From assembly GCA_041751215.1 (NCBI GenBank), contig JBGSXW010000005.1, positions 195,664-259,663 of the forward strand: a stretch of 64,000 bases of DNA, read 5' to 3'. Made by a program: the position numbers and the translations under genes. Within the stretch, counting starts at the first letter, position 1, and the number at the start of each line of letters is the position of its first letter. Below are positions 2,061 to 52,636 of this stretch, piece after piece. This DNA comes from Candidatus Saccharimonadales bacterium. GTDB taxonomy: Bacteria > Patescibacteriota > Saccharimonadia > Saccharimonadales > JBGSXW01. The notes beneath the pieces are model-generated. The model was not told where the DNA came from, did not search any database, and was given only the letters and a program-made list of their open reading frames with translations.

Positions 2061-2825
2061 TTATGGCCGCAGCGTTCCTGCAAAAACCTGCCAAGCCAAT
2101 AATGACTTAGCGACCAGACTCAGAACAATATAAGCGTATTCACCGTAGATATAGTTTTTCCAGCGCCCAACCTGTTTGTACTGGAGCGCCATATTAATTG
2201 CAAAGCAGTTAAAGAAAAGGAATATGGATACAAATATCCAGTAAACAAACGTCGGCGCACTACTACCGTTGCTCGAGCCTAGCCAAAGGTAAAATGCGAT
2301 TACCAGCCAAGGGACAGCTCCTGCTAGACACCCAACCCAATAACTCAGCCAGTTCGTCTTTTTTGTTGATTGATTGTGAACTTCCATGACAAGTCCTAGT
2401 AAGTTCATAACTGCAACCAACGCAAACAACATCAAAAGACTCATGGCATCGTATACCCCAACAAGCAGGGCAATTGCGACGATCATGACACTTGCTGAGA
2501 GCGAGTACTCAACCCAGCGCGCAACGTTCATGCCGCGCGCAAGCTGCTCGTTATACTTCTTGTTATAAACAGTAGCGATACTAAAGTGCGCAGCCGAAGA
2601 CAAAAACAAAAAGATAGCGATTAAAATAGGTAGTGAAATATCAAAAAGAATCGTTGTTGCTGGCTCCAGAGTTTCGCTTGCCTGGTTGTATTCAAGAAAA
2701 CTACCGCTAACCGGAAGGGTAAAACTTTTGCTGAGCACAAGAATGGCAAAGCCCTGAACAAGGTGTAAAAACCCCGCAATAATATTAAGTTTGCGCAAGG
2801 ACGCTGGGTTAGGTGAGGTTTTCAT
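2061..2825 (-). CDS. heliorhodopsin (7-TM retinal protein)
   Basis: 254 aa with 7 predicted TM segments. It aligns by eye along its whole length with characterised heliorhodopsins. Shared motifs are GFLHLVQ, AAHFS, RWVEYSLSASVMIV (counter-ion Glu), FLFFNCFA, and C-terminal YIVLSLVAKSLLAWQVFAGTL with the Schiff-base Lys (K240 of this ORF). The promoter is leaderless: TATAGT (rc 2832..2837), 6 nt, then ATG. Confidence 0.85.
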   Translation of the reverse strand: MKTSPNPASLRKLNIIAGFLHLVQGFAILVLSKSFTLPVSGSFLEYNQASETLEPATTILFDISLPILIAIFLFLSSAAHFSIATVYNKKYNEQLARGMNVARWVEYSLSASVMIVAIALLVGVYDAMSLLMLFALVAVMNLLGLVMEVHNQSTKKTNWLSYWVGCLAGAVPWLVIAFYLWLGSSNGSSAPTFVYWIFVSIFLFFNCFAINMALQYKQVGRWKNYIYGEYAYIVLSLVAKSLLAWQVFAGTLRP

Positions 2826-4182: not shown

Positions 4183-4317
4183 TGGCTCCGGGGAAAGGAT
4201 AATCGCACATTTCCTCACGTGCTCTCCGCCTAAGGCGGATGCGCGCGCTCGTTATGACCGAACCTTCGACCTAGTGGTTAACAGCCACCCGTCCGCCAAC
4301 TGGCGGACTACCCCGGA
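4183..4317 (-). pseudogene. tRNA-Asn(GUU)-like gene with about 55 nt inserted in the T arm (interrupted or degenerate tRNA)
   Basis: On the minus strand the acceptor is TCCGGGG/CCCCGGA followed by G and CCA. The D arm is GTCC-GCCAGTTGGC-GGAC. The anticodon arm is GGTGG-CTGTTAA-CCACT (GUU). T stem GAAGG/CCTTT is split by about 55 nt that contains the hairpin TCCGCC-TTA-GGCGGA. Total length is 135 nt. Confidence 0.45.
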
Positions 4318-4331
4318 TTATTAACAATTCT

Positions 4332-4406
4332 TGGCTCCGGAGGCCGGACTCGAACCGGCAGCCCTCTGATTAACAGTCAGATGCTCTACCATTGAGCTAC
4401 TCCGGA
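4332..4406 (-). tRNA. tRNA-Asn (anticodon GUU)
   Basis: A manual 75-nt cloverleaf reads TCCGGAG TA GCTC AATGGTA GAGC A TCTGA CTGTTAA TCAGA GGGCT GCCGG TTCGAGT CCGGC CTCCGGA G CCA. Confidence 0.9.
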
Positions 4407-4657
4407 TTACCAGAATTGTTAATAATTCCTTTTACGAACTGTCGTCCTCTGAAGCTTTTGAGTTGATTTTCGCGCTGTATGGCTGCCTGGCGGGTAGGTT
4501 GTTCTTCTTGATAGATTAACGTCCAGTTGCCCTTTTGCGCCGTGAAATGTTTTTCGCGCTTTGCCCTATGTTCGGATAGACGACGTTCAATGTTTGAGGT
4601 CTGACCGATATAAATGCTTTGCGTTAGGTCATTGTATATAACGTAAACAATAAACAT
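4397..4657 (-). CDS. GIY-YIG nuclease family protein (small stand-alone type)
   Basis: 86 aa. VYVIYNDLTQSIYIGQTSNIERRLSEH gives the GIY...YIG and Arg motifs, and a later RENQLK supplies the Glu. The last 10 nt including the TAG stop lie inside the 5' end of tRNA-Asn. Confidence 0.8.
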   Translation of the reverse strand: MFIVYVIYNDLTQSIYIGQTSNIERRLSEHRAKREKHFTAQKGNWTLIYQEEQPTRQAAIQRENQLKSFRGRQFVKGIINNSGNPE

Positions 4658-4671
4658 TTAGTAATTTTACG

Positions 4672-4705
4672 GCCACCTGTCCGCCAACTGGCGGACTACC
4701 CCGAT
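4672..4705 (-). repeat. orphan copy of the variant tRNA-Asn 5' half (acceptor 5' strand, D arm and 5' anticodon stem)
   Basis: The minus strand reads ATCGGGGTAGTCCGCCAGTTGGCGGACAGGTGGC. It is near-identical to 4317..4284 and diverges exactly at the start of the anticodon loop. The GIY-YIG ATG follows 12 nt downstream. Confidence 0.6.
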
Positions 4706-4726
4706 TTCTAATGTGCGTCCAAGGCT

Positions 4727-4761
4727 AGCCACCCGTCCGCCAACTGGCGGACTACCCCGGA
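4727..4761 (-). repeat. orphan copy of the variant tRNA-Asn 5' half
   Basis: The minus strand reads TCCGGGGTAGTCCGCCAGTTGGCGGACGGGTGGCT. It is identical to 4317..4283 and then diverges at anticodon-loop position 33/34. Confidence 0.6.
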
Positions 4762-4863
4762 TTACGCTAGCTAATTGTAATCGTAACCAGCTGAGGAGTA
4801 AACAGGAAAGAAAACTTGCATTGACTGATATAATTACAAGCATAAGCAGAGTCAACACAAGAT

Positions 4864-14851: not shown

Positions 14852-15012
14852 AGCACCTTTTCAAAAAGGTGCTCCAAAACTTTTACGCTGCTGTAAAAAC
14901 GCTCTTGATCTCGCTCGAGACAAAACTCGGGCAACTGCGGAATCCGTCTGAACAGTCCTCGTCGCGCCGGGCCTTGCTCTCACGGTCTCAGAGGTTTTTT
15001 ACAGATGCGTAA
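14852..15012 (+). repeat. structured intergenic repeat, copy A (divergent)
   Basis: H1 is GCACCTTTT-CAAA-AAGGTGC. The long hairpin has outer arms CTGTAAAAA/TTTTTACAG and a conserved apex TGCGGAATCCGTCTGAACAGTCCTC. It starts 5 nt after the corA stop. Confidence 0.7.
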
Positions 15013-15109: not shown

Positions 15110-15138
15110 TTGACACTGCTTAAGCAATTTGAGAGAAT
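15110..15138 (+). promoter_or_regulatory. sigma70-type promoter candidate
   Basis: TTGACA (15110..15115), a 17-nt spacer, then GAGAAT (15133..15138). Confidence 0.4.
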
Positions 15139-15224: not shown

Positions 15225-15329
15225 ATGCCAATTGAGGTAAGGGATTTATCTTTGCGTGCCCGACGCGTAAACGTTGATGTAAGAATGCCAGAGTGGCGCG
15301 AGTTCTTAGTAATAGAACACGCCACATAA
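15225..15329 (+). CDS. candidate 34-aa small ORF
   Basis: The ATG is preceded by GAGGAGG 8 nt upstream. The peptide is MPIEVRDLSLRARRVNVDVRMPEWREFLVIEHAT. It is below the ORF-track size cut-off and no homology can be assessed. Confidence 0.25.
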   Translation: MPIEVRDLSLRARRVNVDVRMPEWREFLVIEHAT

Positions 15330-15416
15330 TAGGAGTACGAACGGTAGTTATAGTCTTTGTCCAATCTGCTTGATGTCAATCAAGTGCTGTAAGCGCGCAC
15401 CTGCTATCATTGAGTA

Positions 15417-17949: not shown

Positions 17950-17974
17950 TTTATCTTCAGTACAAACCGACCTG

Positions 17975-18170
17975 CTTTGTCGCTCCCGCGACGGGGGTTG
18001 TTGCCACTTTTTAAAAAGTGGCTCAAAACCTACCCGCTACTATAAAAACTCTCATGAGCCTGCTTCATCCAAACCTCGGGCGGCTGCGGAGTTCGTCCGC
18101 CAACTGGCGGACAGTCCTCGCCGCTCCGGGTTTTGACCTCGCAAGCTCAGAGGTTTTTACAGATGCGGAG
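17975..18170 (+). repeat. structured intergenic repeat, copy B (with an 11-nt apical insertion)
   Basis: It shares a 5' module (CTTTGTCGCTCCCGCGACGGGGG) with copy C. H1 is GCCACTTTT-TAAA-AAGTGGC. Helices are TCCAAACC/GGTTTTGA and GCGGC/GCCGC. The apex carries the perfect hairpin GTCCGCC-AACT-GGCGGAC (18095..18112). Confidence 0.7.
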
Positions 18171-18245
18171 GTGAAAAAGAGTTTCATGCCCTGTCTGCGA
18201 TTCGGACTCTGAGATCGGACCTGACTTCTGTTATAATTGGTCGCA

Positions 18246-19568
18246 ATGAGAACGTTAGCTAGAGACATCGCCGAACAGGTCGGCAAACCAACAACAATTC
18301 AGGGTTGGTTACATAAAAAACGCTTGCTTGGTGGACTGGCCTTTATTTTAGTTCGAGATCGCAGCGGTGTAGTTCAGGTTGTAGTGGAGGACAAAGACGA
18401 AGTCGAGAAGCTCCGAGGTTTGCAAATCGGAACAGTTCTAGAAGTTTCGGGCGACGTCACTAAAGAAGATCGAGCACCTGGCGGTGCCGAGATTCACGAG
18501 CCAAAGTTAAATGTTCTAGTTCCGGTGACCGACGAGCCCCCAATCGAAATCGATAAGCCTATTAGTCACAAGTCAGAAAACCTCGATACGCTGCTCGACT
18601 ATCGTCCGCTGACCCTGCGTAACCTACAAGAAAAAGCTATTTTTAAAGTTCAGGCAACAGTCTTAAAGGCTTTTCGTGAGTTTTTTGCCGACAACGATTT
18701 TACAGAGATAAATAGCCCCAAGCTTTTGGCCGAAGCCACCGAGGGCGGAGCCGAAACTTTCAAGCTAGACTACTTCGGCAAAACCGCCACGCTTGCACAA
18801 TCGGCTCAGTTTTATAAGCAAATGATGGTCGGTGTTTTTGAGCGAGTCTTTGAGACAAACCCAACTTATAGAGCCGAGCCAAGTGCCACGACTCGCCACA
18901 TGACCGAGTACATAACAATTGATGCCGAGATCGGGTTAATTGAGTTTGAAGAACTCATGAACTACGCCGGCGACTGCCTGGCTTACATAATCAAGACCGT
19001 CCAGTCTGAGTGTGCCCAGGAACTAAAATCTTGGAACGTGCAGTCCTTTACATTGCCAGAGAGTGGCAAAGATATTCCGCGACTTACCATTACTGAAATC
19101 CACGAACTTTTCTTACAGGCTACTAAAGAAGATCACACCGGTGAGGATGATTTGGCGCCCGCTGAAGAGAAATGGATTTGCGAACACGCCAAGAAAAATC
19201 TCAATTCCGAAGCCGTGTTTGTTGTAGGTTGGCCGGCAAAAAGTAAAACCTTTAAGTTTTATCATCGGGCAAACGAACAAGATCCTGAACTTGCTGATCG
19301 CGCCGACTTGCTATTCCGCGGAGTCGAGATCACCACCCTTAGCATGCGCGAAAACCGCTACGACAAGCTAATAGAACAACTCAAAGCCAATGGCGGCGAT
19401 CCAGATAGCGCCGGTTACGCACCGTTACTTAGCGCCTACAAGTACGGCATGCCACCGCACGGCGGGTGGGGTTGGGGACTAGAACGAACCGTGCAGCGTA
19501 TTTTAGGACTCAATAACGTCAAAGAAGCCACGCTTTTCCCACGGGATATTAATCGACTGAGCCCGTAG
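18246..19568 (+). CDS. aspS: aspartate--tRNA ligase, archaeal/eukaryal type (possibly non-discriminating)
   Basis: The N-terminal OB fold is IQGWLHKKRLLGGLAFILVRDRSG. Class IIb motifs are YRAEPSATTRHMTEY and GMPPHGGWGWGLERTV, ending in LFPRDINRLSP. At about 440 aa it matches archaeal-type AspRS length. The start is set at ATG 18246, 8 nt after TATAAT (18232..18237). The ORF track begins at TTG 18237. Confidence 0.85.
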   Translation: MRTLARDIAEQVGKPTTIQGWLHKKRLLGGLAFILVRDRSGVVQVVVEDKDEVEKLRGLQIGTVLEVSGDVTKEDRAPGGAEIHEPKLNVLVPVTDEPPIEIDKPISHKSENLDTLLDYRPLTLRNLQEKAIFKVQATVLKAFREFFADNDFTEINSPKLLAEATEGGAETFKLDYFGKTATLAQSAQFYKQMMVGVFERVFETNPTYRAEPSATTRHMTEYITIDAEIGLIEFEELMNYAGDCLAYIIKTVQSECAQELKSWNVQSFTLPESGKDIPRLTITEIHELFLQATKEDHTGEDDLAPAEEKWICEHAKKNLNSEAVFVVGWPAKSKTFKFYHRANEQDPELADRADLLFRGVEITTLSMRENRYDKLIEQLKANGGDPDSAGYAPLLSAYKYGMPPHGGWGWGLERTVQRILGLNNVKEATLFPRDINRLSP

Positions 19569-23087: not shown

Positions 23088-23119
23088 GACTGATTTCTTT
23101 TCAGAATGAACCGAAGTGT

Positions 23120-23303
23120 CTTTGTCGCTCCCGCGACGGGGGTATTGCCACTTTTCATAAAGTGGCTCAAAACTCCCCCGCTAACTACCAAAACACTCTT
23201 GAAACTAGTTCAGCCAGACCTCGGGTAGCTGCGGAGTCCGTCCGAACAGTCCTCGCTACGCCGGGCTTTGGCTTCCTAGTCTCAGAGGTTTTGGTAGAGG
23301 CGG
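23120..23303 (+). repeat. structured intergenic repeat, copy C
   Basis: Very similar to copy D, with helices CTACCAAAAC/GTTTTGGTAG and GTAGC/GCTAC and apex TGCGGAGTCCGTCCGAACAGTCCTC. It also carries the 5' module shared with copy B. Confidence 0.7.
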
Positions 23304-23346
23304 TAAGGAGAAAATGCACCGGACCGAGTAATGATAGAATAAGGGT

Positions 23347-23637
23347 ATGTCTAAGCTACTAGCAGCAGATGAAATTCAAACGAACTTGGCGAAGCTTGAT
23401 CTTGAATGGGCAACACCTGGGCAAGCTACACTAACCCGAGTTTTTAACTTCGATGACTTTAAGCAAGCTTTAGCCTTTGTAAATAAAATCGGGGACCTGG
23501 CCGAAGAGCTAAACCACCACCCAGACATTGAACTTAACTACGGTAAAGTGGTAGTTAACTTGACTACTCATAGCGCCGGCGGTTTAACGAGCAAGGACTT
23601 CGAGCTAGCCAACCAGATTGATCAGCTGGTAAGTTAG
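23347..23637 (+). CDS. phhB: 4a-hydroxytetrahydrobiopterin dehydratase (PCD/DCoH)
   Basis: 96 aa. ELNHHPDIELNYGKVVVNLTTH is the family signature. Leaderless context: TAGAAT (23335..23340)-N6-ATG. Confidence 0.85.
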   Translation: MSKLLAADEIQTNLAKLDLEWATPGQATLTRVFNFDDFKQALAFVNKIGDLAEELNHHPDIELNYGKVVVNLTTHSAGGLTSKDFELANQIDQLVS

Positions 23638-32130: not shown

Positions 32131-32288
32131 TGCCACTTTTTAAAAAGTGGCTCAAAACTTTCCCGCTGCTACCAAAACACTCTTGAAACTAGTTCAGCCA
32201 GAGCTCGGGTAGCTGTGGAGTCCGTCCGAACAGTCCTCGCTACGCCGGGCTCTGGCTTCCAAGTCTCAGAGGTTTTGGTAGGGGCGGG
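32131..32288 (+). repeat. structured intergenic repeat, copy D
   Basis: It starts 6 nt after the permease stop. H1 is GCCACTTTT-TAAA-AAGTGGC. Helices are CCCGC..CTACCAAAAC..CTCT/AGAG..GTTTTGGTAG..GCGGG, GCCAGAGC/GCTCTGGC and GTAGC/GCTAC. Confidence 0.7.
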
Positions 32289-32334
32289 CTCTAGCTTAAT
32301 TCTCCCCTGCCTGCAGGCAAGCTTGCATTGCATC

Positions 32335-32405
32335 GCTGAAAAGTGGTCAGTAACAATATCGTCATTCCTGCGCTCCTAGCTTCAGATGTTTTGGTAGGGG
32401 CGGGG
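32335..32405 (+). repeat. internally deleted second copy of the structured repeat
   Basis: AAAAGTGGTCAGTAAC resembles the H1 3' half. CTAGCTTCAGATGTTTTGGTAGGGGCGGGG duplicates the right arm of copy D (32258..32288). Confidence 0.55.
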
Positions 32406-32426
32406 TTGAGTTATAATCACAAAACT

Positions 32427-33368
32427 ATGAATATTTGGCAGGAATTAAAGAAACCATTTTTCGTATTGGCGCCGATGGACGACGTTACGGACACTGTGTT
32501 CAGGCAAGTGGTTGCTGAGTGCGCCCGACCTGATTTGTTTTTTACTGAGTTTGTCTCGGTTGACGGGCTGCAGTCCAAGGGACGGGAAGCGCTTCTGAAT
32601 AAACTTAAATTCACCGACCAAGAGACCCCACTGATTGCTCAGATTTGGGGCATGAATCCAGACAACTATGCTAAGACTAGCAAGCAACTTTACAAGATGG
32701 GTTTTGCAGGCGTTGATATAAACATGGGCTGTCCGGTTCCGAAGGTGATAAAACTAGGCGCCTGCTCTGCGTTAATGAAGGATCGGCCCTTAGTTACCGA
32801 GATCATCCAGGCCACCAAACAGGGCCGACTGCCGGTTAGCGTTAAAACCCGCCTTGGCTTTAACGAGATTGATTTGAGTTGGATCGAGTTTTTACTTGAG
32901 CATCAATTAGCTGCTCTGACTATCCACGTTAGAACCGTAAAAGAACTCTCTAAAGCTCCGGCCAAGTGGGAGTTATTGCCCGAGATCATTAAACTACGAG
33001 ACAAAATTTCGCCCGAAACCTTAATTATTGGCAACGGAGACGTGTTAAGCCACAAACAGGGCCTAGAGCTGGCCGCGGAAACTGGCGTGGGCGGTATTAT
33101 GATCGGCCGCGGAGTGTTTCAGGATCCGTATGTGTTTACACCAAAATCGCCGTGGCCAAAGCAGGATAAGAGCGCTCGACTTAAGTTGTTTGCTCGACAT
33201 CTCGATCTGTTTATTGACACTTGGAATGGCAATCAAAATCCGGCAGCATTAAAAAAGTTTGCCAAGATTTACATCAACGGATTTGCTGGCGCTTCGGATC
33301 TAAGGTCAAGGCTAATGGACTGCAAAACTGCTCAAGACATGAAGACTCTTGTGCTTAGTGAAGTTTAA
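32427..33368 (+). CDS. dus: tRNA-dihydrouridine synthase
   Basis: FFVLAPMDDVTDTVFR and GVDINMGCP are Dus family motifs. The start was moved to ATG 32427, 9 nt after TATAAT (32412..32417). The upstream part of the tracked ORF lies in the repeat. Confidence 0.85.
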   Translation: MNIWQELKKPFFVLAPMDDVTDTVFRQVVAECARPDLFFTEFVSVDGLQSKGREALLNKLKFTDQETPLIAQIWGMNPDNYAKTSKQLYKMGFAGVDINMGCPVPKVIKLGACSALMKDRPLVTEIIQATKQGRLPVSVKTRLGFNEIDLSWIEFLLEHQLAALTIHVRTVKELSKAPAKWELLPEIIKLRDKISPETLIIGNGDVLSHKQGLELAAETGVGGIMIGRGVFQDPYVFTPKSPWPKQDKSARLKLFARHLDLFIDTWNGNQNPAALKKFAKIYINGFAGASDLRSRLMDCKTAQDMKTLVLSEV

Positions 33369-35257: not shown

Positions 35258-37708
35258 ATGCCTAGACTACCCATACCTGGTGGCGACGAAGATACTTGGG
35301 GTGATATCCTCAATGAGTTCTTAGAAGTTGAGCATAACGCTGACGGCACTCAAAAGACAGTGGCTGTCACAAAGGGCGGTACAGGGCGAACCACCGGTAC
35401 TACAGCCTACGGTATTATTGCTGCCGGTACGACCGACACTGGAGCTCAACAAACCATCTCGCCCGGCTCAAGCGGCCAAATCCTAAAGTCCAACGGTGCT
35501 AGCGCGCTGGCTTCATTCCAAACTGGCGCACCAGGGGACGTGGGCTTGGGCAACGTTACCAACGACCTGCAGCTCAAAGCAGCTGATCTTGATATTGACG
35601 ATACGCTAGCGGCCAATAGTGACACTAAAATTGCCAGCCAGCAGGCCACCAAAGCCTATGTAGATAACTTGACTATCGATACTGCTCTCAGCACCGCTGG
35701 CCAACTACTAAAGTCTACTGGCCCAAGCACACTTCCAGCTTTCTCTACTGGCGCACCAGGCGATGTGGGGCTTGGTAATGTTACGAACGACCTCCAACTG
35801 AAAGCCGCTGATCTTGATATCGACGATACGCTAGCGGCCAATAGTGACACTAAAATTGCCAGCCAGCAGGCCACAAAAGCCTACGTAGACACTAATGTTT
35901 CTGGCATTGACGCAGACATCACTACCCTCGAGTCCAAAACTACACCCCTTGATGGTGGCATCTATTTGCGTGACCCCAATTTGCAAGCCTGGTTTGATGA
36001 TATCGATGATCCGGTGGCTAACCCTGTCGACCTGGTGGTTATTGGTGACTCTATTGCCCAGCTTTCTGCCTGGCCAGACGTATTGTATGGACAGCTGGCC
36101 ACTCGATTCAACGTGAATAACAGCAAGACAGTTACTCCAATCGTTGGTTTAAGACACCCCGCCTCAGGTATTGGCATCCCCAAGTTCACCTCTACCATTA
36201 ACGGCACCCAGGTAAGCGGTGCTGGGTCTGGTTTTGCCGGTTGGGCAGTGACTATGACTAATGGCCAGTCTAACGAAACAGTTCATATCTGTGATGGGGT
36301 ATTTATTATCTGGACAGAAGGTACTGGATCACTAATAGTGAAGGATGGTGGGTCTGGCGGTAGCACTGTTGCTACTATTGACACCAGTACTGGCAGTGGC
36401 TATAGCAACATTACGTCTATAGATCTTACGACCTACGCCAGCCACACTATTTACATAGAGTCTTCTGGTAACACCAAGCTTGAGGCTGTTATGCCAACTG
36501 TAGGGAACCGAACGGTGGGAATTCGCGTCTGGCGGGCTGCTCACGCTGGGTACACCACCGCCGGTTTTAACGATCAGCCGGAGTACGCTCTTGATTTTAT
36601 TGATAAACTCAAAGTTCTTTCGGGTAGAGAGCCTCACGTAATCGTGGCCACCGGCTATAACGACGCTGACGGTGCAACCTACGAAACTGAGATAACCGAA
36701 CTGATTACCACCATTCAAACTAAAACTACCGGCTCAATTGCTCTTTGGGTACCTTGGGGTAGGGCCGTGCCACAAGAGCGTCCAACACGAGCCAAACAGA
36801 TAGCTGAAAGCATGGGGTTGGGTCTAATTGATGCCAACAGAGCCTTCGGGAGTGTCTCCAGTGTTGCAGATTTAAACAACCTATCGGATGATCACATTCA
36901 TCCCAATAACAATGGTGTTGCAGCTCTCGCCACGCAGGCGCTGGCGGTATTAAGTGGCGATCCACTCGGCTCGCTCGTGACCATGATTCAGGGCAACACT
37001 GGTCTACAGTTTCGTGGCAACCTAACCGGTAACGTTACGGGTAATGTGACTGGTGCCTTTGACCTGGACTTAGGGGCAACAGGACGCTTGCAAGCAGCTA
37101 ATATATTCGGTTATCCTGGATTAACGCTACATAACGACTCGGCTGACGCTCAAGCATCAATGGCCTTCTACCCAGCCGGCCTAGCCGCATTCTTGTCTTA
37201 TCCAGCTGCATCACTTGCTTTTGGAGCTGGTGGAGCTACGTCACTTGATGTAGCGTTGTCTCGGTCTGCAGCAGGAGTTTTAACAGTCTATGGGGGGTCT
37301 GGCGCATCCCTCGGAAATATTGTGACAAGTTTAATTCGAAATAGCGCTGGTTCACCAGAATCAGTAGTCAGCGCACCAGTTGGTGCAATCTGCCACGACA
37401 CCACAAACGGTGATTTATACGTGAAAGAATCAGGCACGGGCAATACAGGTTGGGTGGCTTTAAGCACAGGAGGGGGTGGTGGATCTGTTTCTGACACCGC
37501 ATACGCCGACTCATGGAATGGGGTAACAACTGACGCGCCATCAAAGAACGCGGTATACGATGCCCTTAACACCAACGGCAAAGGGTTTGTAAATCACGGC
37601 TCAACTGCTAGTACCGCCAGACCGGAAGGCTTCGCATCGGTCGAATGGTACGGTACAGTCGAGCCAGATAACATAGCAGCAGGAGATACTTGGATTGACC
37701 CAAGTTAA
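35258..37708 (+). CDS. phage tail-fibre-like protein with a central SGNH/GDSL hydrolase domain
   Basis: The N-terminus MPRLPIPGGDEDTWGDILNEFL and the motifs DTKIASQQATKAYVD (x2), LYVKESGTGNTGWVAL and AYADSWNGVTTDAPSKNAVYDAL resemble actinophage minor-tail/tail-fibre proteins. VVIGDSIAQ (the GDS block) and DDHIHPNNNG (DxxH) define the SGNH esterase. ATG 35258 is preferred over TTG 35243. Confidence 0.7.
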   Translation: MPRLPIPGGDEDTWGDILNEFLEVEHNADGTQKTVAVTKGGTGRTTGTTAYGIIAAGTTDTGAQQTISPGSSGQILKSNGASALASFQTGAPGDVGLGNVTNDLQLKAADLDIDDTLAANSDTKIASQQATKAYVDNLTIDTALSTAGQLLKSTGPSTLPAFSTGAPGDVGLGNVTNDLQLKAADLDIDDTLAANSDTKIASQQATKAYVDTNVSGIDADITTLESKTTPLDGGIYLRDPNLQAWFDDIDDPVANPVDLVVIGDSIAQLSAWPDVLYGQLATRFNVNNSKTVTPIVGLRHPASGIGIPKFTSTINGTQVSGAGSGFAGWAVTMTNGQSNETVHICDGVFIIWTEGTGSLIVKDGGSGGSTVATIDTSTGSGYSNITSIDLTTYASHTIYIESSGNTKLEAVMPTVGNRTVGIRVWRAAHAGYTTAGFNDQPEYALDFIDKLKVLSGREPHVIVATGYNDADGATYETEITELITTIQTKTTGSIALWVPWGRAVPQERPTRAKQIAESMGLGLIDANRAFGSVSSVADLNNLSDDHIHPNNNGVAALATQALAVLSGDPLGSLVTMIQGNTGLQFRGNLTGNVTGNVTGAFDLDLGATGRLQAANIFGYPGLTLHNDSADAQASMAFYPAGLAAFLSYPAASLAFGAGGATSLDVALSRSAAGVLTVYGGSGASLGNIVTSLIRNSAGSPESVVSAPVGAICHDTTNGDLYVKESGTGNTGWVALSTGGGGGSVSDTAYADSWNGVTTDAPSKNAVYDALNTNGKGFVNHGSTASTARPEGFASVEWYGTVEPDNIAAGDTWIDPS
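35474..35892 (+). repeat. intragenic tandem duplication (2 x 225 nt, 75 aa) within the tail-fibre-like gene
   Basis: GQ(I/L)LKS..GAPGDVGLGNVTNDLQLKAADLDIDDTLAANSDTKIASQQATKAYVD occurs twice. The 3' ~75 nt of each unit are nearly identical at the DNA level, whereas the 5' parts differ at synonymous sites. Confidence 0.85.
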
Positions 37709-40385: not shown

Positions 40386-40447
40386 TCACAACTCCTTTTC
40401 TTTCCTGCAACTACGTTAAAGTATACAGTAAAAACTTCACCAGAAAA

Positions 40448-41044
40448 TCAGTTTGTTGTTGCGGTATAAGTAACAGTATCGCTGTAAGTACCGTTCGGGT
40501 TGGAGGTATCGGCCTTAACTGAGTACCAAACTGTTGTGGTGTCGTTCGAAGCAGTTGTACCAGTGGTCTTGATGGTGTTTGCCGCGCCATCGGCTGGTAC
40601 GCCGGCCCACACAGTAGAGCTGCTGGCAACGTTGTCTAGTGCGGAGTAGCTTCCATCAAAACCACCGACAGTCGCGACAGCGTAGCCCCAGGTATTGTTG
40701 GCTAGTGCACTTGGTGAAGCTTGGGTGCCAGCGTGAGCAGGTATGTCGTTGCCGCCGTTAACAAGATCGGTATTGGCATCGCTATCTGCGAGAGTCAAGT
40801 TATATCCAGATGCGTTATTCGTCGAAACGGTTACGGTGTCTGAAGCACTGGTTTGTGAACCACCACTGACAGGAGTGACGTTAAGCGTAACGGTACCGGA
40901 AGAACTGATGCTGATAACAGATGCGATACTGGCATTAATGGTAGTAGTATCAGAGTCAGTAGCAGCCATAACTGTTACGGGGGTTAGTATTAGTGATCCA
41001 AGACCTAAAGAGGCTCCTAGTACTAGTTTGCTTTTTTTACTCAT
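40448..41044 (-). CDS. secreted WxL-like beta-rich surface protein, paralog 2
   Basis: The start is set at MSKKSKLVLGASLGLGSLILTPVTVMA. The N-terminal ~125 aa are almost identical to paralog 3. It ends in TVWYSVKADTSNPNGTYSDTVTYTATTN. Confidence 0.6.
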   Translation of the reverse strand: MSKKSKLVLGASLGLGSLILTPVTVMAATDSDTTTINASIASVISISSSGTVTLNVTPVSGGSQTSASDTVTVSTNNASGYNLTLADSDANTDLVNGGNDIPAHAGTQASPSALANNTWGYAVATVGGFDGSYSALDNVASSSTVWAGVPADGAANTIKTTGTTASNDTTTVWYSVKADTSNPNGTYSDTVTYTATTN

Positions 41045-41115
41045 ATGATGATCGCTCCCTTTTATGTTGTTCTTCGTATGTTGTTTAGTATAAAACATAA
41101 GCTGTTTGGCGGCAA

Positions 41116-41730
41116 TCAGTTTGTTGTTGCGGTATAAGTAACAGTATCGCTGTATGTACCGTTAGGATTGGAGGTATCGGCCTTAACTGCATACCAAACT
41201 GTTGTAGTGTCGCCAGCGGCAGTTGTACCAGTGGTCTTGATGGTGTTTGGGGCACCACTAGCTGGCACACCGGCGTAAGTTATCGTGCTGGTTGTAACGT
41301 TACTCTCAACTGCACCGCCAGTAGAAAAGCCACCGATGCTGTCTACTCGGTAGCCCCAGGTATTGTTGGCTAGTGCACTTGGTGAAGCTTGGGTGCCAGC
41401 GTGAGCAGGTATGTCGTTGCCGCCGTTAACAAGATCGGTATTGGCATCGCTATCTGCGAGAGTCAAGTTATATCCAGATGCGTTATTTGTCGAAACGGTT
41501 ATTGTGTCCGAAGCACTGGTTTGTGAGCCGCCACTGACAGGAGTAACGTTGAGTGTGACGGTGCCAGAAGAACTGATGCTAATAGTTGAGCCGAGGTTGG
41601 CATTAATTGTAGTGGTGTCGGAGTCGGTAGCAGCCAGAACTGTTACGGGTAGTGCAATAACGCCTACCAGCAACAACAATGCGTTTACGCTAAAGAGTTT
41701 CAAGATTGATTTCTGATTTGATTGAGCCAT
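41116..41730 (-). CDS. secreted WxL-like beta-rich surface protein, paralog 3
   Basis: 204 aa with a signal peptide. NASGYNLTLADSDANTDLVNGGNDIPAHAG, NNTWGYRV and TVWYAVKADTSNPNGTYSDTVTYTATTN are present. Confidence 0.6.
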   Translation of the reverse strand: MAQSNQKSILKLFSVNALLLLVGVIALPVTVLAATDSDTTTINANLGSTISISSSGTVTLNVTPVSGGSQTSASDTITVSTNNASGYNLTLADSDANTDLVNGGNDIPAHAGTQASPSALANNTWGYRVDSIGGFSTGGAVESNVTTSTITYAGVPASGAPNTIKTTGTTAAGDTTTVWYAVKADTSNPNGTYSDTVTYTATTN

Positions 41731-47188: not shown

Positions 47189-47797
47189 ATGCCCGCCAAA
47201 AAAAAGCCAGAAACAAGCAAAACTGCTAAGAAGCAGCCAGCACCTACATTAAAGTCATCAAACAAGAATAAACTTCTATTAGCAGTCGTAGTATTAGCGG
47301 TTGCGTTAGTGGCTGGATTCTTTGTTTACAGAAGCCAAGCAGCTACTCACGTAGCTACAGTGGTGGCAACCAACTCGCTTACTTCAGAACGCAATATCAC
47401 AAAGTATAGAAACGGGGCGTTCAGGAAATTATCTGCGAACTTAGGTAAAAGCGCTGTTGATGTTGTGTGGATAAAAAAGGGGTATGATTTTTGGATGATC
47501 GCTCCGACATCAACCGATGGACGGCACAAGGCCTGCTTCGAGCTCTTTCTTTCTAAAAAGGCAACCCAGGTTAGACTTGATGTATACAGGCAGCAAACGG
47601 CCACAAATAATTTTCAGCCTTCGCCTTATATCCTAACGTTCAACGATCCCACGAAGACAATACCGGCTAAAAAGACTCTTCAGACTCACTGTGTTGAGTT
47701 CTACTCAAATATCAAAAATACTAAAGCGTATTATGGTGTCGTGACACCTATTGGCGGCAACGTTAACGTGCGCAAAGTAACCGTAATAAAGCTTTAG
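47189..47797 (+). CDS. secreted/anchored protein of unknown function, tandem family member 1
   Basis: A Lys-rich N-tail and a TM/signal segment end in YRSQAATHVATVVA. Conserved Cys residues are KACFELF and THCVEF. The C-terminus is RKVTVIKL. Confidence 0.6.
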   Translation: MPAKKKPETSKTAKKQPAPTLKSSNKNKLLLAVVVLAVALVAGFFVYRSQAATHVATVVATNSLTSERNITKYRNGAFRKLSANLGKSAVDVVWIKKGYDFWMIAPTSTDGRHKACFELFLSKKATQVRLDVYRQQTATNNFQPSPYILTFNDPTKTIPAKKTLQTHCVEFYSNIKNTKAYYGVVTPIGGNVNVRKVTVIKL

Positions 47798-47806
47798 GGA
47801 ATAGCC

Positions 47807-48355
47807 ATGGCTAACAAAAAAACCAAAAACATTTCTTTACCCAAAAACCGCAAGAAAATCTTGATCTTAATATCAATTCTGCTGGTATCGCTAGTTGGTA
47901 CATTCTTTTTATATCGCAGCCAGGCGGCAACGCATGTTGCGACTATAGTTGCATACCACAATTTTCCGGGCCATCTTAATAGCAAGTATTATCGACCCGT
48001 AACTATTCCGGTAGGCAAGAGCACCGATAAAGCGGTCTGGATAGCTAAAAGTACTACGGCGTACAATACCGGATTCAGCATTAAAAGTGGTGTTAAGTTT
48101 TCATCAGGGGTTTCCTACCGAGCCTGCTTTCAGTTCTACAACAAGAATCCCAATACCATTTTGCTTACAGTTAGCGATGGAGATTACGTTAGGCGTGAAG
48201 TCAATCGGGTCACAGTGAATACTCAGGGTAGCCCAAGTATCCAACAGCGATGCATGGACTTTAGACTTAGCAATCCCAGTTCTGAATTATGGTTTAAGCA
48301 CAAACCACTTGCCTATAACGGGATTTTCTATAAAGTAACCGTAATCAAACTCTAA
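47807..48355 (+). CDS. tandem family member 2
   Basis: The N-terminus is MANKKTKNISLPKNRKKILILISILLVSLVGTFFLYRSQAATHVATIVA. Also RACFQFY, QRCMDF and a C-terminal YKVTVIKL. Confidence 0.6.
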   Translation: MANKKTKNISLPKNRKKILILISILLVSLVGTFFLYRSQAATHVATIVAYHNFPGHLNSKYYRPVTIPVGKSTDKAVWIAKSTTAYNTGFSIKSGVKFSSGVSYRACFQFYNKNPNTILLTVSDGDYVRREVNRVTVNTQGSPSIQQRCMDFRLSNPSSELWFKHKPLAYNGIFYKVTVIKL

Positions 48356-48364
48356 GTAACAACC

Positions 48365-48919
48365 ATGGCTAACAAAAAAACTAACAAGATCTCTTTACCC
48401 CGAAATCGTAATAAAATTCTTGTTATCGCAACAATTCTGTTGGTATCCGTAGTCGGTACGTTCCTGGTATATCGCAGCCAAGCAGCAACGCATGTTGTAA
48501 CTATCGTGGCGAAAGATCAGGCAACTACCCTAGATGGTTACGGTAGCACTGTTAAACTCTTCACAATTCCTGCGGGCAAAGGTACCTTGCCCGGACTCTG
48601 GGTCAAGAAAGGAAAAGGCGTAGGCCTAAGCCACCAAGCTTCTTATGCCAAAGGCGCTACATATCAAGCCTGCTTTGCGCTATATAACACCAAAGACAAT
48701 AAAGTTAGGCTAAAGGTCACAGGATGGAATGGTACTGGCTATAATTCAGACATCGTTGACTTATCTGAACGGATAATCAGCATAGCTGGGCAGAAGAATA
48801 AAACCCAAAGTCACTGCGTTAAATTCAAGCCAGACCAACCTTATTCGCGGGTCATGCTTGGGTATGAGCCACTTGGAATGAATGGAGTTATTCATAAAGT
48901 AACGGTCATCAAACACTAA
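48365..48919 (+). CDS. tandem family member 3
   Basis: The N-terminal 49 aa are about 80% identical to member 2. Also QACFALY, SHCVKF and a C-terminal HKVTVIKH. Confidence 0.6.
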   Translation: MANKKTNKISLPRNRNKILVIATILLVSVVGTFLVYRSQAATHVVTIVAKDQATTLDGYGSTVKLFTIPAGKGTLPGLWVKKGKGVGLSHQASYAKGATYQACFALYNTKDNKVRLKVTGWNGTGYNSDIVDLSERIISIAGQKNKTQSHCVKFKPDQPYSRVMLGYEPLGMNGVIHKVTVIKH

Positions 48920-48931
48920 GAGGAAATAATT

Positions 48932-49516
48932 ATGCCAAGCAAAAAAAACAGCAAGCCCAAGGCAACTCCAAAGACATCCGCTTCAAGCCCAAAATTAAAT
49001 GTTAATAGGGCAACCAAGCAGAAAATACTGATGACGGTAGTTGTACTTCTAGTAGCACTAACAGCGGGACTGTTCGTGTACAGGAGTCAGGCAGCCGCTG
49101 GTGACATCAAGCGTTCCGCCCCACAAATGAACGGGGGAGTTTGTGTCTATGTTAACACCGGTAAAAGCTACAAGTGCATAGAGCGCACCCTGGTAAGACC
49201 GGTAAGCGTAACGATACCTGTTTATAGCGGCAGTAACGGCTCGGCCAAAAAAGTTTGTATTAACGGACGGGATGCGCGCAACGTGATTAACAAAATCCAT
49301 GCCAGTCTTTCAATCCGAAACGGAGTAAACCGAGGCTATGACGACGGAGTAAATGTTCGTTCGGGCTGGGTGCAAAGCTGGAGCTTTGGTTTGCCATCAG
49401 GAACTTCATACGTAACTCTTAAATTTGCTGGTACAAAATCTGGTGGATCAGACAGTTTAGCTCGCATACGCGATGTTGTAATCCGCAATACAAGCAAAGC
49501 CGGCTGTCAGCCGTAA
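48932..49516 (+). CDS. tandem family member 4 (divergent)
   Basis: It has the same N-tail/TM layout ending in VYRSQAAAG. The body differs and carries 4 Cys, ending in VVIRNTSKAGCQP. Confidence 0.5.
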   Translation: MPSKKNSKPKATPKTSASSPKLNVNRATKQKILMTVVVLLVALTAGLFVYRSQAAAGDIKRSAPQMNGGVCVYVNTGKSYKCIERTLVRPVSVTIPVYSGSNGSAKKVCINGRDARNVINKIHASLSIRNGVNRGYDDGVNVRSGWVQSWSFGLPSGTSYVTLKFAGTKSGGSDSLARIRDVVIRNTSKAGCQP

Positions 49517-52337: not shown

Positions 52338-52524
52338 CTTGTAGGGGGTACTTATTAGCGCGTGTTCTTCGCGAACTCGCTTGCGGAGGCAGGAGCGTGC
52401 TTGCTAACGCTCGCACTTCTTCCTGCGGTACTCGGCAAAGCTAAAAACAAGTTTTCGCTTTGGCCTGTGTTCCTCGTTCGCCGAACCTACGGTTCGGTTC
52501 CTGCCCACGATGCCGAGTGCAAAT

Positions 52525-52548
52525 GAAAAAACCACCCGTAAAGGGTGG
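52525..52548 (-). terminator. Rho-independent terminator downstream of tRNA-fMet
   Basis: The minus strand reads CCACCC-TTTAC-GGGTGG followed by TTTTTTC. It is nested in a larger inverted repeat, GTGCAAATG...CATTTGCAC. Confidence 0.7.
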
Positions 52549-52561
52549 ATCCATTTGCACT

Positions 52562-52636
<75 letters not shown>

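Follow-up and report, generated by a model that had tools for sequence, protein, structure and literature searches.

Copies of the element and their neighbouring genes

The window, the whole 64,000-nt stretch of a Saccharimonadales contig that was analysed, contains four full copies (A–D) of an intergenic element and a truncated copy, D', which adjoins copy D (Table 1). All pieces lie on the + strand and are co-oriented with the flanking genes. Copy A is located downstream of the CorA gene and is followed by a 34-aa ORF and then by an alpha/beta hydrolase gene. Copy B is positioned between the CNNM+CBS gene and the gene for class II AspRS, and copy C between the genes for a 607-aa CarboxypepD_reg surface protein and pterin-4a dehydratase. 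The pair of copy D and D' separates the ABC-2 permease gene from Dus. The Pfam assignments agree with the names that the earlier note had given to the neighbouring genes. The four full + strand copies reported there were recovered at their positions by direct reading, by alignment, and by a covariance model, and the upstream stop codons precede them by 4–32 nt, where 4–30 nt had been noticed.

Table 1. Positions of the repeat copies, their parts, and associated features in the window
Feature	Position	Strand	Distance from upstream stop codon (nt)	Model score (bits)	Description
Copy A	14852..15012	+	4 (CorA)	156	Short form; fold z -3.2
Copy B	17950..18172	+	25	169	Long form
Copy B, 5' extension	17950-18001	+			
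Copy B, core	18002-18171	+			H1/H2
Copy C	23095..23306	+	32	182	Long form
Copy C, core	23146-23306	+			
Copy D	32131..32290	+	5 (ABC-2 permease)	185	Short form
Copy D, H1	32132-32151	+			
Copy D, linker	32152-32158	+			
Copy D, H2	32162-32288	+			
Copy D, apex	~32213-32240	+			
Region upstream of D'	32296-32369				Degenerate left arm (CTCCCCTGCC)
D'	32370..32406	+			3' arm of a second copy; 87-96% identity to 32258-32288
19-nt hairpin	18094..18112	+			CGTCCGCCAACTGGCGGAC; apex of copy B
19-mer, recurrences	4290-4308, 4679-4696, 4734-4752				Within the 38-nt repeat
38-nt hairpin repeat, three copies	4283-4320, 4671-4708, 4727-4764 (within 4283..4764)	+			
Promoter-like match downstream of A	15110-15138				TTGACA-17-GAGAAT; outside the repeat
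Promoter-like match downstream of B	18209-18237				Extended -10 TATAAT; outside the repeat

Repeat detection in the window grouped the copies as families of 99, 119, and 61 nt, and the four cores aligned with MAFFT have a mean column identity of 81%. The conserved pattern of the 3' half occurs four times in the window, compared with 0.00 occurrences expected from shuffled sequences. The four cores were combined into a covariance model, R1, which has 160 positions and 51 pairs and scores copies A–D at 156–185 bits, with E-values of 1e-29 to 1e-35. When R1 was run over the whole window, the only hits beyond A–D were weak self-hits on the reverse strand (27–40 bits). The unit is hence asymmetric, and its orientation is defined.

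Repeats in metagenome bins can be mis-assembled, which is the sole reason to suspect that the copies are an artefact. In a second assembly (Logan, SRR28170463), contigs are 100% identical to the window over copy A, the halves of copy B, and copies C, D, and D', and the identity extends into the unique flanks of the copies. Contig ends fall within shared repeats: at 4239 and 4735 in the 38-nt hairpin repeat, at 18101/18104 in the same small hairpin at the apex of copy B (contigs L090/L089), at 23151 (H1) and 23238 (apex) in copy C, and at 32158 (H1) and 32222 (apex) in copy D. Copy A is crossed unbroken by contig L090 at 100% identity. The identity and the positions of the contig ends confirm the copies as genuine repeats at which assemblies break. 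With the shuffled-sequence expectation and the R1 E-values also standing against it, the probability that the family reflects chance similarity or an assembly artefact is practically nil, and this explanation is already refuted for practical purposes.

Modular architecture and mosaic composition of the element

The element can be divided into an optional 5' extension of ~50 nt, a short hairpin H1, an unpaired linker with the sequence TCAAAAC, and a long hairpin H2. H1 is a perfect palindrome of 20 nt. H2 is an imperfect hairpin of ~125 nt, the arms of which constitute a 43-bp imperfect inverted repeat that continues up to the 3' end of the element; H1 and the linker are located outside this inverted repeat, on its 5' side. 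The H2 stem is flanked by invariant A4 and T4-6 (U4-6) tracts. The conserved apex has the sequence GGAnTnCGTC...ACAGTCCTCG and contains three GTCC motifs. The CGTC is invariant in all five pieces (A–D and D'), whereas GTAG is present in the arms of copies C and D and missing from A and B. The inner helix and apex are the most conserved parts, at about 80–86% between divergent copies, and the outer arms and internal loops the least conserved, at 33–75%.

H1, the linker, the three helices of H2, the conserved apex, and the 1-nt indel between copies C and D are all as described in the earlier note. A single change had been reported in H1 of copy C, which in fact differs from H1 of B and D at two loop-proximal positions. 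The middle helix of copy B contains one C·T mismatch in the register that was proposed for it.

The 5' extension is common to copies B and C, begins directly past the stop codon, and is 92.7% identical over 55 nt. Its sequence, TTTaTcTTCAG..AACCGA..CTTTGTCGCTCCCGCGACGGGGGT, includes a small hairpin, which in copy B is GTCGC-TCCC-GCGAC. The element thus occurs in a long form of ~210–220 nt (B and C) and a short form of ~160 nt (A and D). The outer helix is TAAAAA/TTTTTA in copies A and B, and ACCAAAAC/GTTTTGGT in C and D, which are 93–96% identical to each other over H2. H1 is identical in copies B and D. Since the outer helix pairs A with B and C with D, the extension links B to C, H1 links B to D, and copy B additionally contains a second repeat, the copies are mosaics. 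Copy A, which shares ~67% identity with B, is the most diverged and has a partly degraded hairpin. Next to copy D, an extra copy with an internal deletion had been proposed at 32335–32405. Its homology to the element is secure only over the 3' arm, the last ~35 nt; the 5' part is weak, and D' is not detected by R1. The degenerate left arm upstream of D' is still able to pair with the fragment.

The apex of copy B is 10 nt longer than those of A, C, and D, and the extra nucleotides complete a perfect hairpin, GTCCGCC-AACT-GGCGGAC. Together with the preceding C, this hairpin makes up a 19-mer that is the core of a separate 38-nt repeat with three copies elsewhere in the window; the small hairpin is also given by sequence as the GTCCGCCAACTGGCGGAC hairpin. 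The 38-nt repeats bracket the tRNA-Asn gene and an 86-aa GIY-YIG ORF at 4.4–4.66 kb, and are tied to the main element only via the 19 nt in the apex of copy B. The small hairpin was considered as a CGTC-tagged REP and rejected: its 7-bp stem opens with G-C, not A-T, and the tag is paired.

Folding and covariation

Copy D folded as + strand RNA is predicted to form H1 and a single long hairpin with an energy of -85.2 kcal/mol (z -8.7), and the - strand reaches -87.0 kcal/mol (z -10.2). With DNA parameters the same fold is obtained, at -47.5 kcal/mol (z -8.7). Double changes that keep the pairing occur at 12 of the 51 pairs, and 95.6% of cells are paired across the four copies. None of 500 column shuffles matched the covariation values, and sliding the partners by 1–3 columns left 0–1 double changes and 35–47% pairing. 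This confirms the compensatory substitutions reported earlier; with only four copies from one genome, the statistics represent few independent events.

The very stable predicted fold and the 12 covarying pairs are consistent with a cis-acting structured RNA module of the 3' UTR, which would be selected as + strand RNA and the copies of which would have arisen by duplication or recombination, not by transposition. However, in REPINs, which are REP doublets that form hairpins and are mobilised by RAYT, compensatory changes are common on both sides of the hairpin (Bertels & Rainey 2011, PMC3116915). Since such changes are documented for these DNA repeats, covariation alone does not single out RNA. 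Furthermore, the fold energy of the element is without strand asymmetry. A transition in a Watson-Crick pair gives G·U or A·C equally, and selection on the + strand RNA should therefore deplete A·C. Within H2, G·U occurs on the + strand in six cells; four of these are one U·G that is invariant in the four copies, and the variable G·U amount to 2 events. The A·C pairs, which are G·U on the - strand, represent 5 events, all at different positions. The numbers are small, and A·C is not depleted relative to variable G·U. The invariant U·G would be C·A on the other strand and speaks for the RNA reading. Because the fold energies are equal and A·C is not depleted, the pairing leans towards constraint at the DNA level or without strand preference, in keeping with what has been described for REPINs.

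Insertion of the copies and absence from related genomes

All the copies are located between 14.85 and 32.41 kb, a span of 17.6 kb of the ~76 kb sampled, and the remaining ~58 kb of sampled sequence (the rest of the window with 8.5 kb to its left and 3.2 kb to its right from the second assembly) contain no copy. According to our own calculation, four random points in ~75.7 kb have a probability of about 0.04 of falling within a span of <=17.4 kb. The expectation of dozens of copies per genome, put forward in the earlier note, is unsupported by this distribution.

The AspRS gene beside copy B places the genome in the Saccharimonadales (Saccharibacteria, Patescibacteria/CPR). The best 80 species loci in GTDB, selected by AspRS, belong almost all to Saccharibacteria/Saccharimonadales, with 57–79% protein identity and one partial match at 87%; in a collection of 5.8 billion proteins, the nearest non-self AspRS relatives are 82% identical. 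Relatives have kept the gene order DsbA(-)-CNNM-AspRS ... surface protein-pterin dehydratase. R1 detected no copy in the loci of the 80 related species (1.36 Mb) or in the closest relatives (L084–L088; 82% AspRS identity), and with all filters off it detected none in the nearest relatives or in the left flank of the source genome. Across 75 relatives, the median spacer between the CNNM stop codon and the AspRS start codon is 97 nt, and about half of them have 30–60 nt, compared with 287 nt here. The surface protein and pterin dehydratase genes are separated by 259 nt here, whereas four of six relatives have a spacer of -64 to +6 nt. In one relative (L006), DsbA is located ~25 nt past CorA, whereas copy A, the 34-aa ORF, and the hydrolase gene intervene in the source genome. 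The absence of the element from relatives and the shortness of the orthologous junctions indicate that the copies are lineage-specific insertions. The simplest reading of this comparison, which is one between species, is that the copies would have been gained in this lineage after its split from all sampled relatives.

The presence/absence comparison of orthologous junctions had been proposed as a test of mobility, together with a search for target-site duplications. In the latter, any direct repeat at the plausible boundaries of copies A–D was limited to 2 nt or less, and no duplication was visible. Sliding-window folding of 1.5 Mb, aimed at structurally analogous elements in relatives, identified a few unrelated long hairpins, none of which is repeated or similar to the element. 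They are located at L068, L005, L083, and 52.5 kb of the window.

Database searches and coding potential

No Rfam 15 family matches the element, and the only matches in the whole window are three tRNAs. A permissive scan of copy D and D' (E up to 10) returned nothing credible; the only matches were OmrA-B with 22 bits (gathering threshold 40) and the KDPG-aldolase RNA with 13.6 bits (gathering threshold 54.6). Sensitive blastn against 72,556 plasmids, 50,697 phage records, and 5,426 complete E. coli genomes was without a match. Exact-pattern scans for the apex and 3' arm found none in GTDB species genomes, JGI metagenomes, and viral contigs, in which copies may be lost since short-read bins break at repeats. 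Our literature search did not find any account of MITEs or palindromic repeats for Saccharibacteria or other CPR. As far as these collections and the literature reach, the element is undescribed, as the earlier note had supposed.

A protein-coding gene was rejected as an explanation. All shared reading frames are broken: C and D differ by the 1-nt indel, copy B carries one of 10 nt, and copy A contains a stop codon. This is in line with the earlier conclusion that the conservation is not protein-coding. The translated element gave 16 candidates among 5.8 billion proteins, none of which was scored as a match. Pfam analysis of ~40 ORFs of the window and the Logan gene tables, which together cover most ORFs of the ~76 kb, revealed no transposase, RAYT, IS200-type or HUH enzyme, or integron integrase. 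The only nucleases or recombinases in the ORFs covered are the 86-aa GIY-YIG ORF and a phage-type integrase ~3 kb beyond the right end of the window.

Position relative to transcription signals

The copies sit between the stop codon of the upstream gene and promoter-like -10/-35 matches of the next gene, which are located outside the repeat downstream of copies A and B (Table 1). TATAAT or TAGAAT boxes can be seen by eye 8–12 nt before the start codons of Dus and pterin dehydratase. The T4-6 tract after the CTCAGAGG stem is invariant, yet it is paired with the invariant A4 in the outer helix. H2 was not called by a simple terminator scan, which allows loops of <=8 nt. H1 was rejected as a canonical terminator, since a U tail follows it only on the - strand of copy A. 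A T-box or riboswitch serving the downstream genes was also rejected: the functions of these genes are unrelated, and Rfam returned nothing.

The position of the copies, co-oriented with the upstream gene, 4–32 nt past its stop codon, and before the promoter-like matches, is where an RNA module of the 3' UTR could act as a putative terminator, 3'-exonuclease block, or, via its GTCC-rich apex, protein platform. The invariance of the A4 and U4-6 tracts and the better conservation of the apex and inner helix than of the outer arms are also consistent with such a role. However, the upstream genes are functionally unrelated, no canonical terminator was called at the sites, and the Rfam result stands against it as well. 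Additionally, the element is missing from the same junctions in 75–80 relatives, and those genes evidently need no such module. We consider an RNA module selected as such unlikely.

Comparison with known hairpin repeats

The element resembles REPINs in being a non-coding, extragenic, multi-copy hairpin of the order of that family (about 100 nt) with compensatory changes. Both have tandem or higher-order arrangements and decayed remnants, and the REPIN hairpin was proposed to form in ssDNA or mRNA (PMC3116915). A REP is a sequence of 20–40 nt with a conserved unpaired GTAG/CGTC head, and is arranged in inverted doublets (PMC3733652, PMC3116915). In contrast, the element has no conserved GTAG head, as GTAG occurs only in copies C and D; its CGTC is apical, it carries the extra 5' palindrome H1, and it is present in a single orientation. 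The arms of REPINs are conserved and their spacer or apex is variable, whereas in the element the variable part is the outer arms, and conservation is best at the apex and inner helix. REPINs have an RAYT, and none was seen in the ~76 kb sampled.

The GTAG/CGTC-tagged REPs are 20–40 nt long and have an unpaired tag, stems of 8–9 bp starting with A-T, and a CCA tail (Di Nocera et al. 2013, PMC3733652). Tagged REPs and BIME-like mosaics are, like the element, found mostly downstream of coding regions and between co-directional genes (PMC3733652). They also form mosaics with other small repeats, and share with the element the CGTC of all copies and the GTAG of the C and D arms. However, the unit described here has 160–220 nt, its CGTC is apical and overlaps the stem in copy B, and copies A and B are without GTAG.

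The ERIC or IRU sequences of enterobacteria are imperfect palindromes of ~127 bp in transcribed intergenic regions, and have a conserved central inverted repeat. To our knowledge, their mobility has never been directly shown. The element is similar to ERICs in its size, its imperfect palindrome, its strictly intergenic location near gene ends, a core that is better conserved than the ends, and size variants that result from internal deletions or insertions. It belongs to another phylum and has no blastn similarity in the 5,426 E. coli genomes. The element occurs in one orientation, whereas ERICs are found in both and are present in far more copies.

Classical MITEs (Correia/NEMIS, RUP, bcr1 and others) are, like the element, short, non-coding, multi-copy sequences with a long stem-loop; they are located near gene ends, may supply terminators or promoters, and include truncated and nested copies. 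In contrast to classical MITEs, the element is without target-site duplication, and its termini are not the conserved part. The features that it shares with MITEs comprise terminal inverted repeats, formed by the H2 arms, and presence/absence between species. We know of no parent IS with terminal inverted repeats that match those of the element. Reviews of classical MITEs are available (PMC10969869, PMC3184786).

Recognition sites of the attC type (e.g. Vibrio VCRs) are likewise imperfect palindromes downstream of ORFs, in one orientation, with conserved unpaired bases, and are read as a folded single strand. They differ from the element in having RYYYAAC/GTTRRRY boxes, in the syntenic housekeeping genes that flank the element, and in the integron integrase, which is missing here. 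An assignment to attC was rejected: the outer arms, CCAAAAC/GTTTTGG or TAAAAAC/GTTTTTA, are off consensus, the flanking genes are core genes that are syntenic in relatives and not cassettes, and the window contains no IntI. The earlier note had not recognised the element as REP/BIME or attC either.

The absence of target-site duplications, the termini that are less conserved than the apex, and the single orientation make elements that act as a folded single strand (REP/RAYT, IS200/IS605 ends, attC) a better fit, even though the sequence features that define these families are missing. The element may serve as the site recognised by a recombinase or nuclease that is specific for single strands. 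The folded strand and its conserved unpaired apex would be read by a putative enzyme (perhaps HUH, tyrosine or GIY-YIG) with a gene elsewhere. This would explain why there is one orientation and why terminal repeats and duplications are missing. The stability of the hairpin with DNA parameters, the conservation of the apex and of some unpaired or wobble positions, and the CGTC invariant in five pieces are consistent with such a site. The apex of copy B is the small hairpin repeat that brackets the GIY-YIG gene, and the phage-type integrase lies ~3 kb beyond the right end of the window. However, the link to the GIY-YIG gene consists of the shared 19-mer only, and neither an HUH transposase nor an integron integrase was found among the ORFs covered, which are most of those in the ~76 kb. 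The boxes R'' and R' of the attC consensus are missing, the flanks are syntenic housekeeping genes instead of cassettes, and the rules for GTAG- and CGTC-tagged REPs (PMC3733652) do not hold. We regard a recombinase site as doubtful.

A functional hairpin whose apex (GGAnTnCGTC...ACAGTCCTCG) would be read sequence-specifically by a candidate protein, either as a 3'-UTR RNA module or as the cis site of a hairpin-targeting mobile system, is quite improbable. In the first form, a new 3'-UTR module would define the 3' ends of mRNAs in a CPR organism with a reduced genome. In the second form, it would be a system of Saccharibacteria that recognises the apex and not the ends, and that might be linked to the hairpin repeat at 4.3–4.8 kb and the GIY-YIG gene.

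A probable lineage-specific palindromic repeat

We favour, with a probability of about 0.55, the interpretation that the copies are lineage-specific, non-coding, palindromic intergenic repeats of the MITE/REPIN/ERIC kind in an uncultured Saccharimonadales genome. The earlier note had left the choice between a structured RNA and a palindromic mobile repeat. The repeat or insertion reading is better supported, because the copies are absent from relatives with short junctions, are mosaic, and include a truncated neighbouring copy, whereas the RNA reading is without specific support. Judged from the sequence comparisons, the copies look like an undescribed family within a familiar category, and a new kind of RNA gene is less favoured. 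Mobility itself is inferred.

The family would have spread locally, within about 18 kb, after the split of the lineage from the sampled relatives. The likely route is that an enzyme with its gene elsewhere copied the element via a hairpin intermediate of single-stranded DNA, together with recombination or gene conversion between copies. The integrity of the hairpin is probably kept at the DNA level. One candidate cause, which has been proposed for REPINs, is that hairpins able to be copied are selected; alternatively, quasi-palindromes may be corrected with the hairpin as the template. Template switching in quasi-palindromes can copy a change from arm to arm without selection. The REP and ERIC sequences and several MITEs are thought to act as terminators or as hairpins that protect 3' ends. 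The position of the copies in the 3' UTR zone and the invariant A4, stem, and U4-6 suggest that H2 is probably also a putative secondary bidirectional terminator or 3'-end protecting hairpin.

Some features of the copies depart from such a repeat. The termini are less conserved than the apex, which is the reverse of classical MITEs and REPINs. The divergence of up to about 33% with pairing kept could equally reflect a function selected at each locus, and the single orientation and stop-codon adjacency of the five pieces would also fit a role as RNA.

The genomes of Saccharibacteria and other CPR are streamlined, with a size of ~1 Mb and tight gene junctions, and their repeat families are essentially undescribed. 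The finding is a modest one: this kind of element is well known, and there are four copies in one uncultured genome. It is of interest as the first family of its kind to be noted in CPR, with an architecture that is conserved at the apex and has a single orientation. As a hairpin repeat recently expanded into four core-gene junctions, it would indicate that streamlined genomes are still open to the spread of selfish or structural DNA, which here splits gene pairs that are much closer or even overlap in relatives. From the copies, a small natural data set, it can also be seen how pairing in long palindromes persists through a divergence of 30%; at the practical level, they are a cause of assembly breaks in metagenome bins.

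Sequences flanking the repeat copies

AspRS, pterin dehydratase, and Dus, the genes downstream of copies B, C and D of the palindromic intergenic hairpin repeat, each have a -10-like box only ~8-12 nt 5' of the start codon. This short spacing, read from the sequence, suggests that the corresponding mRNAs would be very short-leadered or leaderless. The -35-like box for Dus could be supplied by the 3' arm (TTGGTA) of D', the 3'-arm fragment located between copy D and the gene. A 34-aa ORF positioned 3' of copy A is preceded by the promoter-like site TTGACA-17-GAGAAT. The junction between AspRS and CNNM, the gene upstream of copy B, is occupied by different DNA in the closest relative, and seems to be a recurrent site of DNA gain.

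Other repeats, hairpins, and genes

The tRNA-Asn(GTT) and a small GIY-YIG ORF, the 3' end of which overlaps the 5' end of the tRNA by ~10 nt, are bracketed by copies of a 38-nt hairpin repeat. The apex of copy B (18094-18112) is the same 19-nt core as that of the 38-nt repeat, and the contigs of the second assembly, Logan (SRR28170463), break both at the 38-nt repeat sites and at this apex. The 38-nt repeat may constitute a second small repeat family, or its copies may be terminators belonging to a mobile GIY-YIG/tRNA unit. Two long imperfect hairpins have no sequence relation to the palindromic repeat or to each other; one of them adjoins tRNA-Met, and the other is located 5' of a canonical terminator.

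Tandem paralogues form a group of two ORFs of ~210 aa on the - strand and a group of four ORFs of ~185-200 aa on the + strand, and an 821-aa ORF contains an internal 191-nt repeat. None of the scanned ORFs among the tandem paralogues and the 821-aa repeat ORF had a Pfam match. Beyond the right end of the window, the HTH_17 gene and the phage-type integrase lie where a Logan contig ends, and may represent the edge of an integrated element.

Features noted besides the hairpin repeat, in window positions unless a contig or locus is named
Feature	Position	Strand	Remarks
254-aa ORF	2061-2825	-	Pfam Heliorhodopsin (PF18761) match, Logan gene table for L082
38-nt hairpin repeat AGCCACCCGTCCGCCAACTGGCGGACTACCCCGGATTA	4283-4320, 4671-4708, 4727-4764		three copies, single orientation
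tRNA-Asn(GTT)	4332-4406	-	
Stand-alone GIY-YIG nuclease-domain ORF, 86 aa	4397-4657	-	Pfam E 2.5e-17
34-aa ORF	15226-15330	+	strong AGGAGG ribosome-binding site; gene call in Logan assembly, L090 8311-8415
TATAAT/TAGAAT -10-like boxes	18226-18246, 23329-23347, 32413-32428		
Tandem paralogous small genes and internal repeat	40446-41625, 47189-49516, 35474-35889		
Long imperfect hairpin	~52490-52565		150-nt windows, -75 to -77 kcal/mol (range for both hairpins)
Long imperfect hairpin	L083 3062-3150 (about 64.07-64.16 kb)		immediately beyond the right window edge; same range
HTH_17 gene and phage-type integrase	L083 138-1563 (about 65.7-67.1 kb)		right of window, adjoining NUDIX gene
Unrelated 98-aa ORF	L084 6227-6523		in place of repeat at CNNM-AspRS junction; closest relative, 82% AspRS identity
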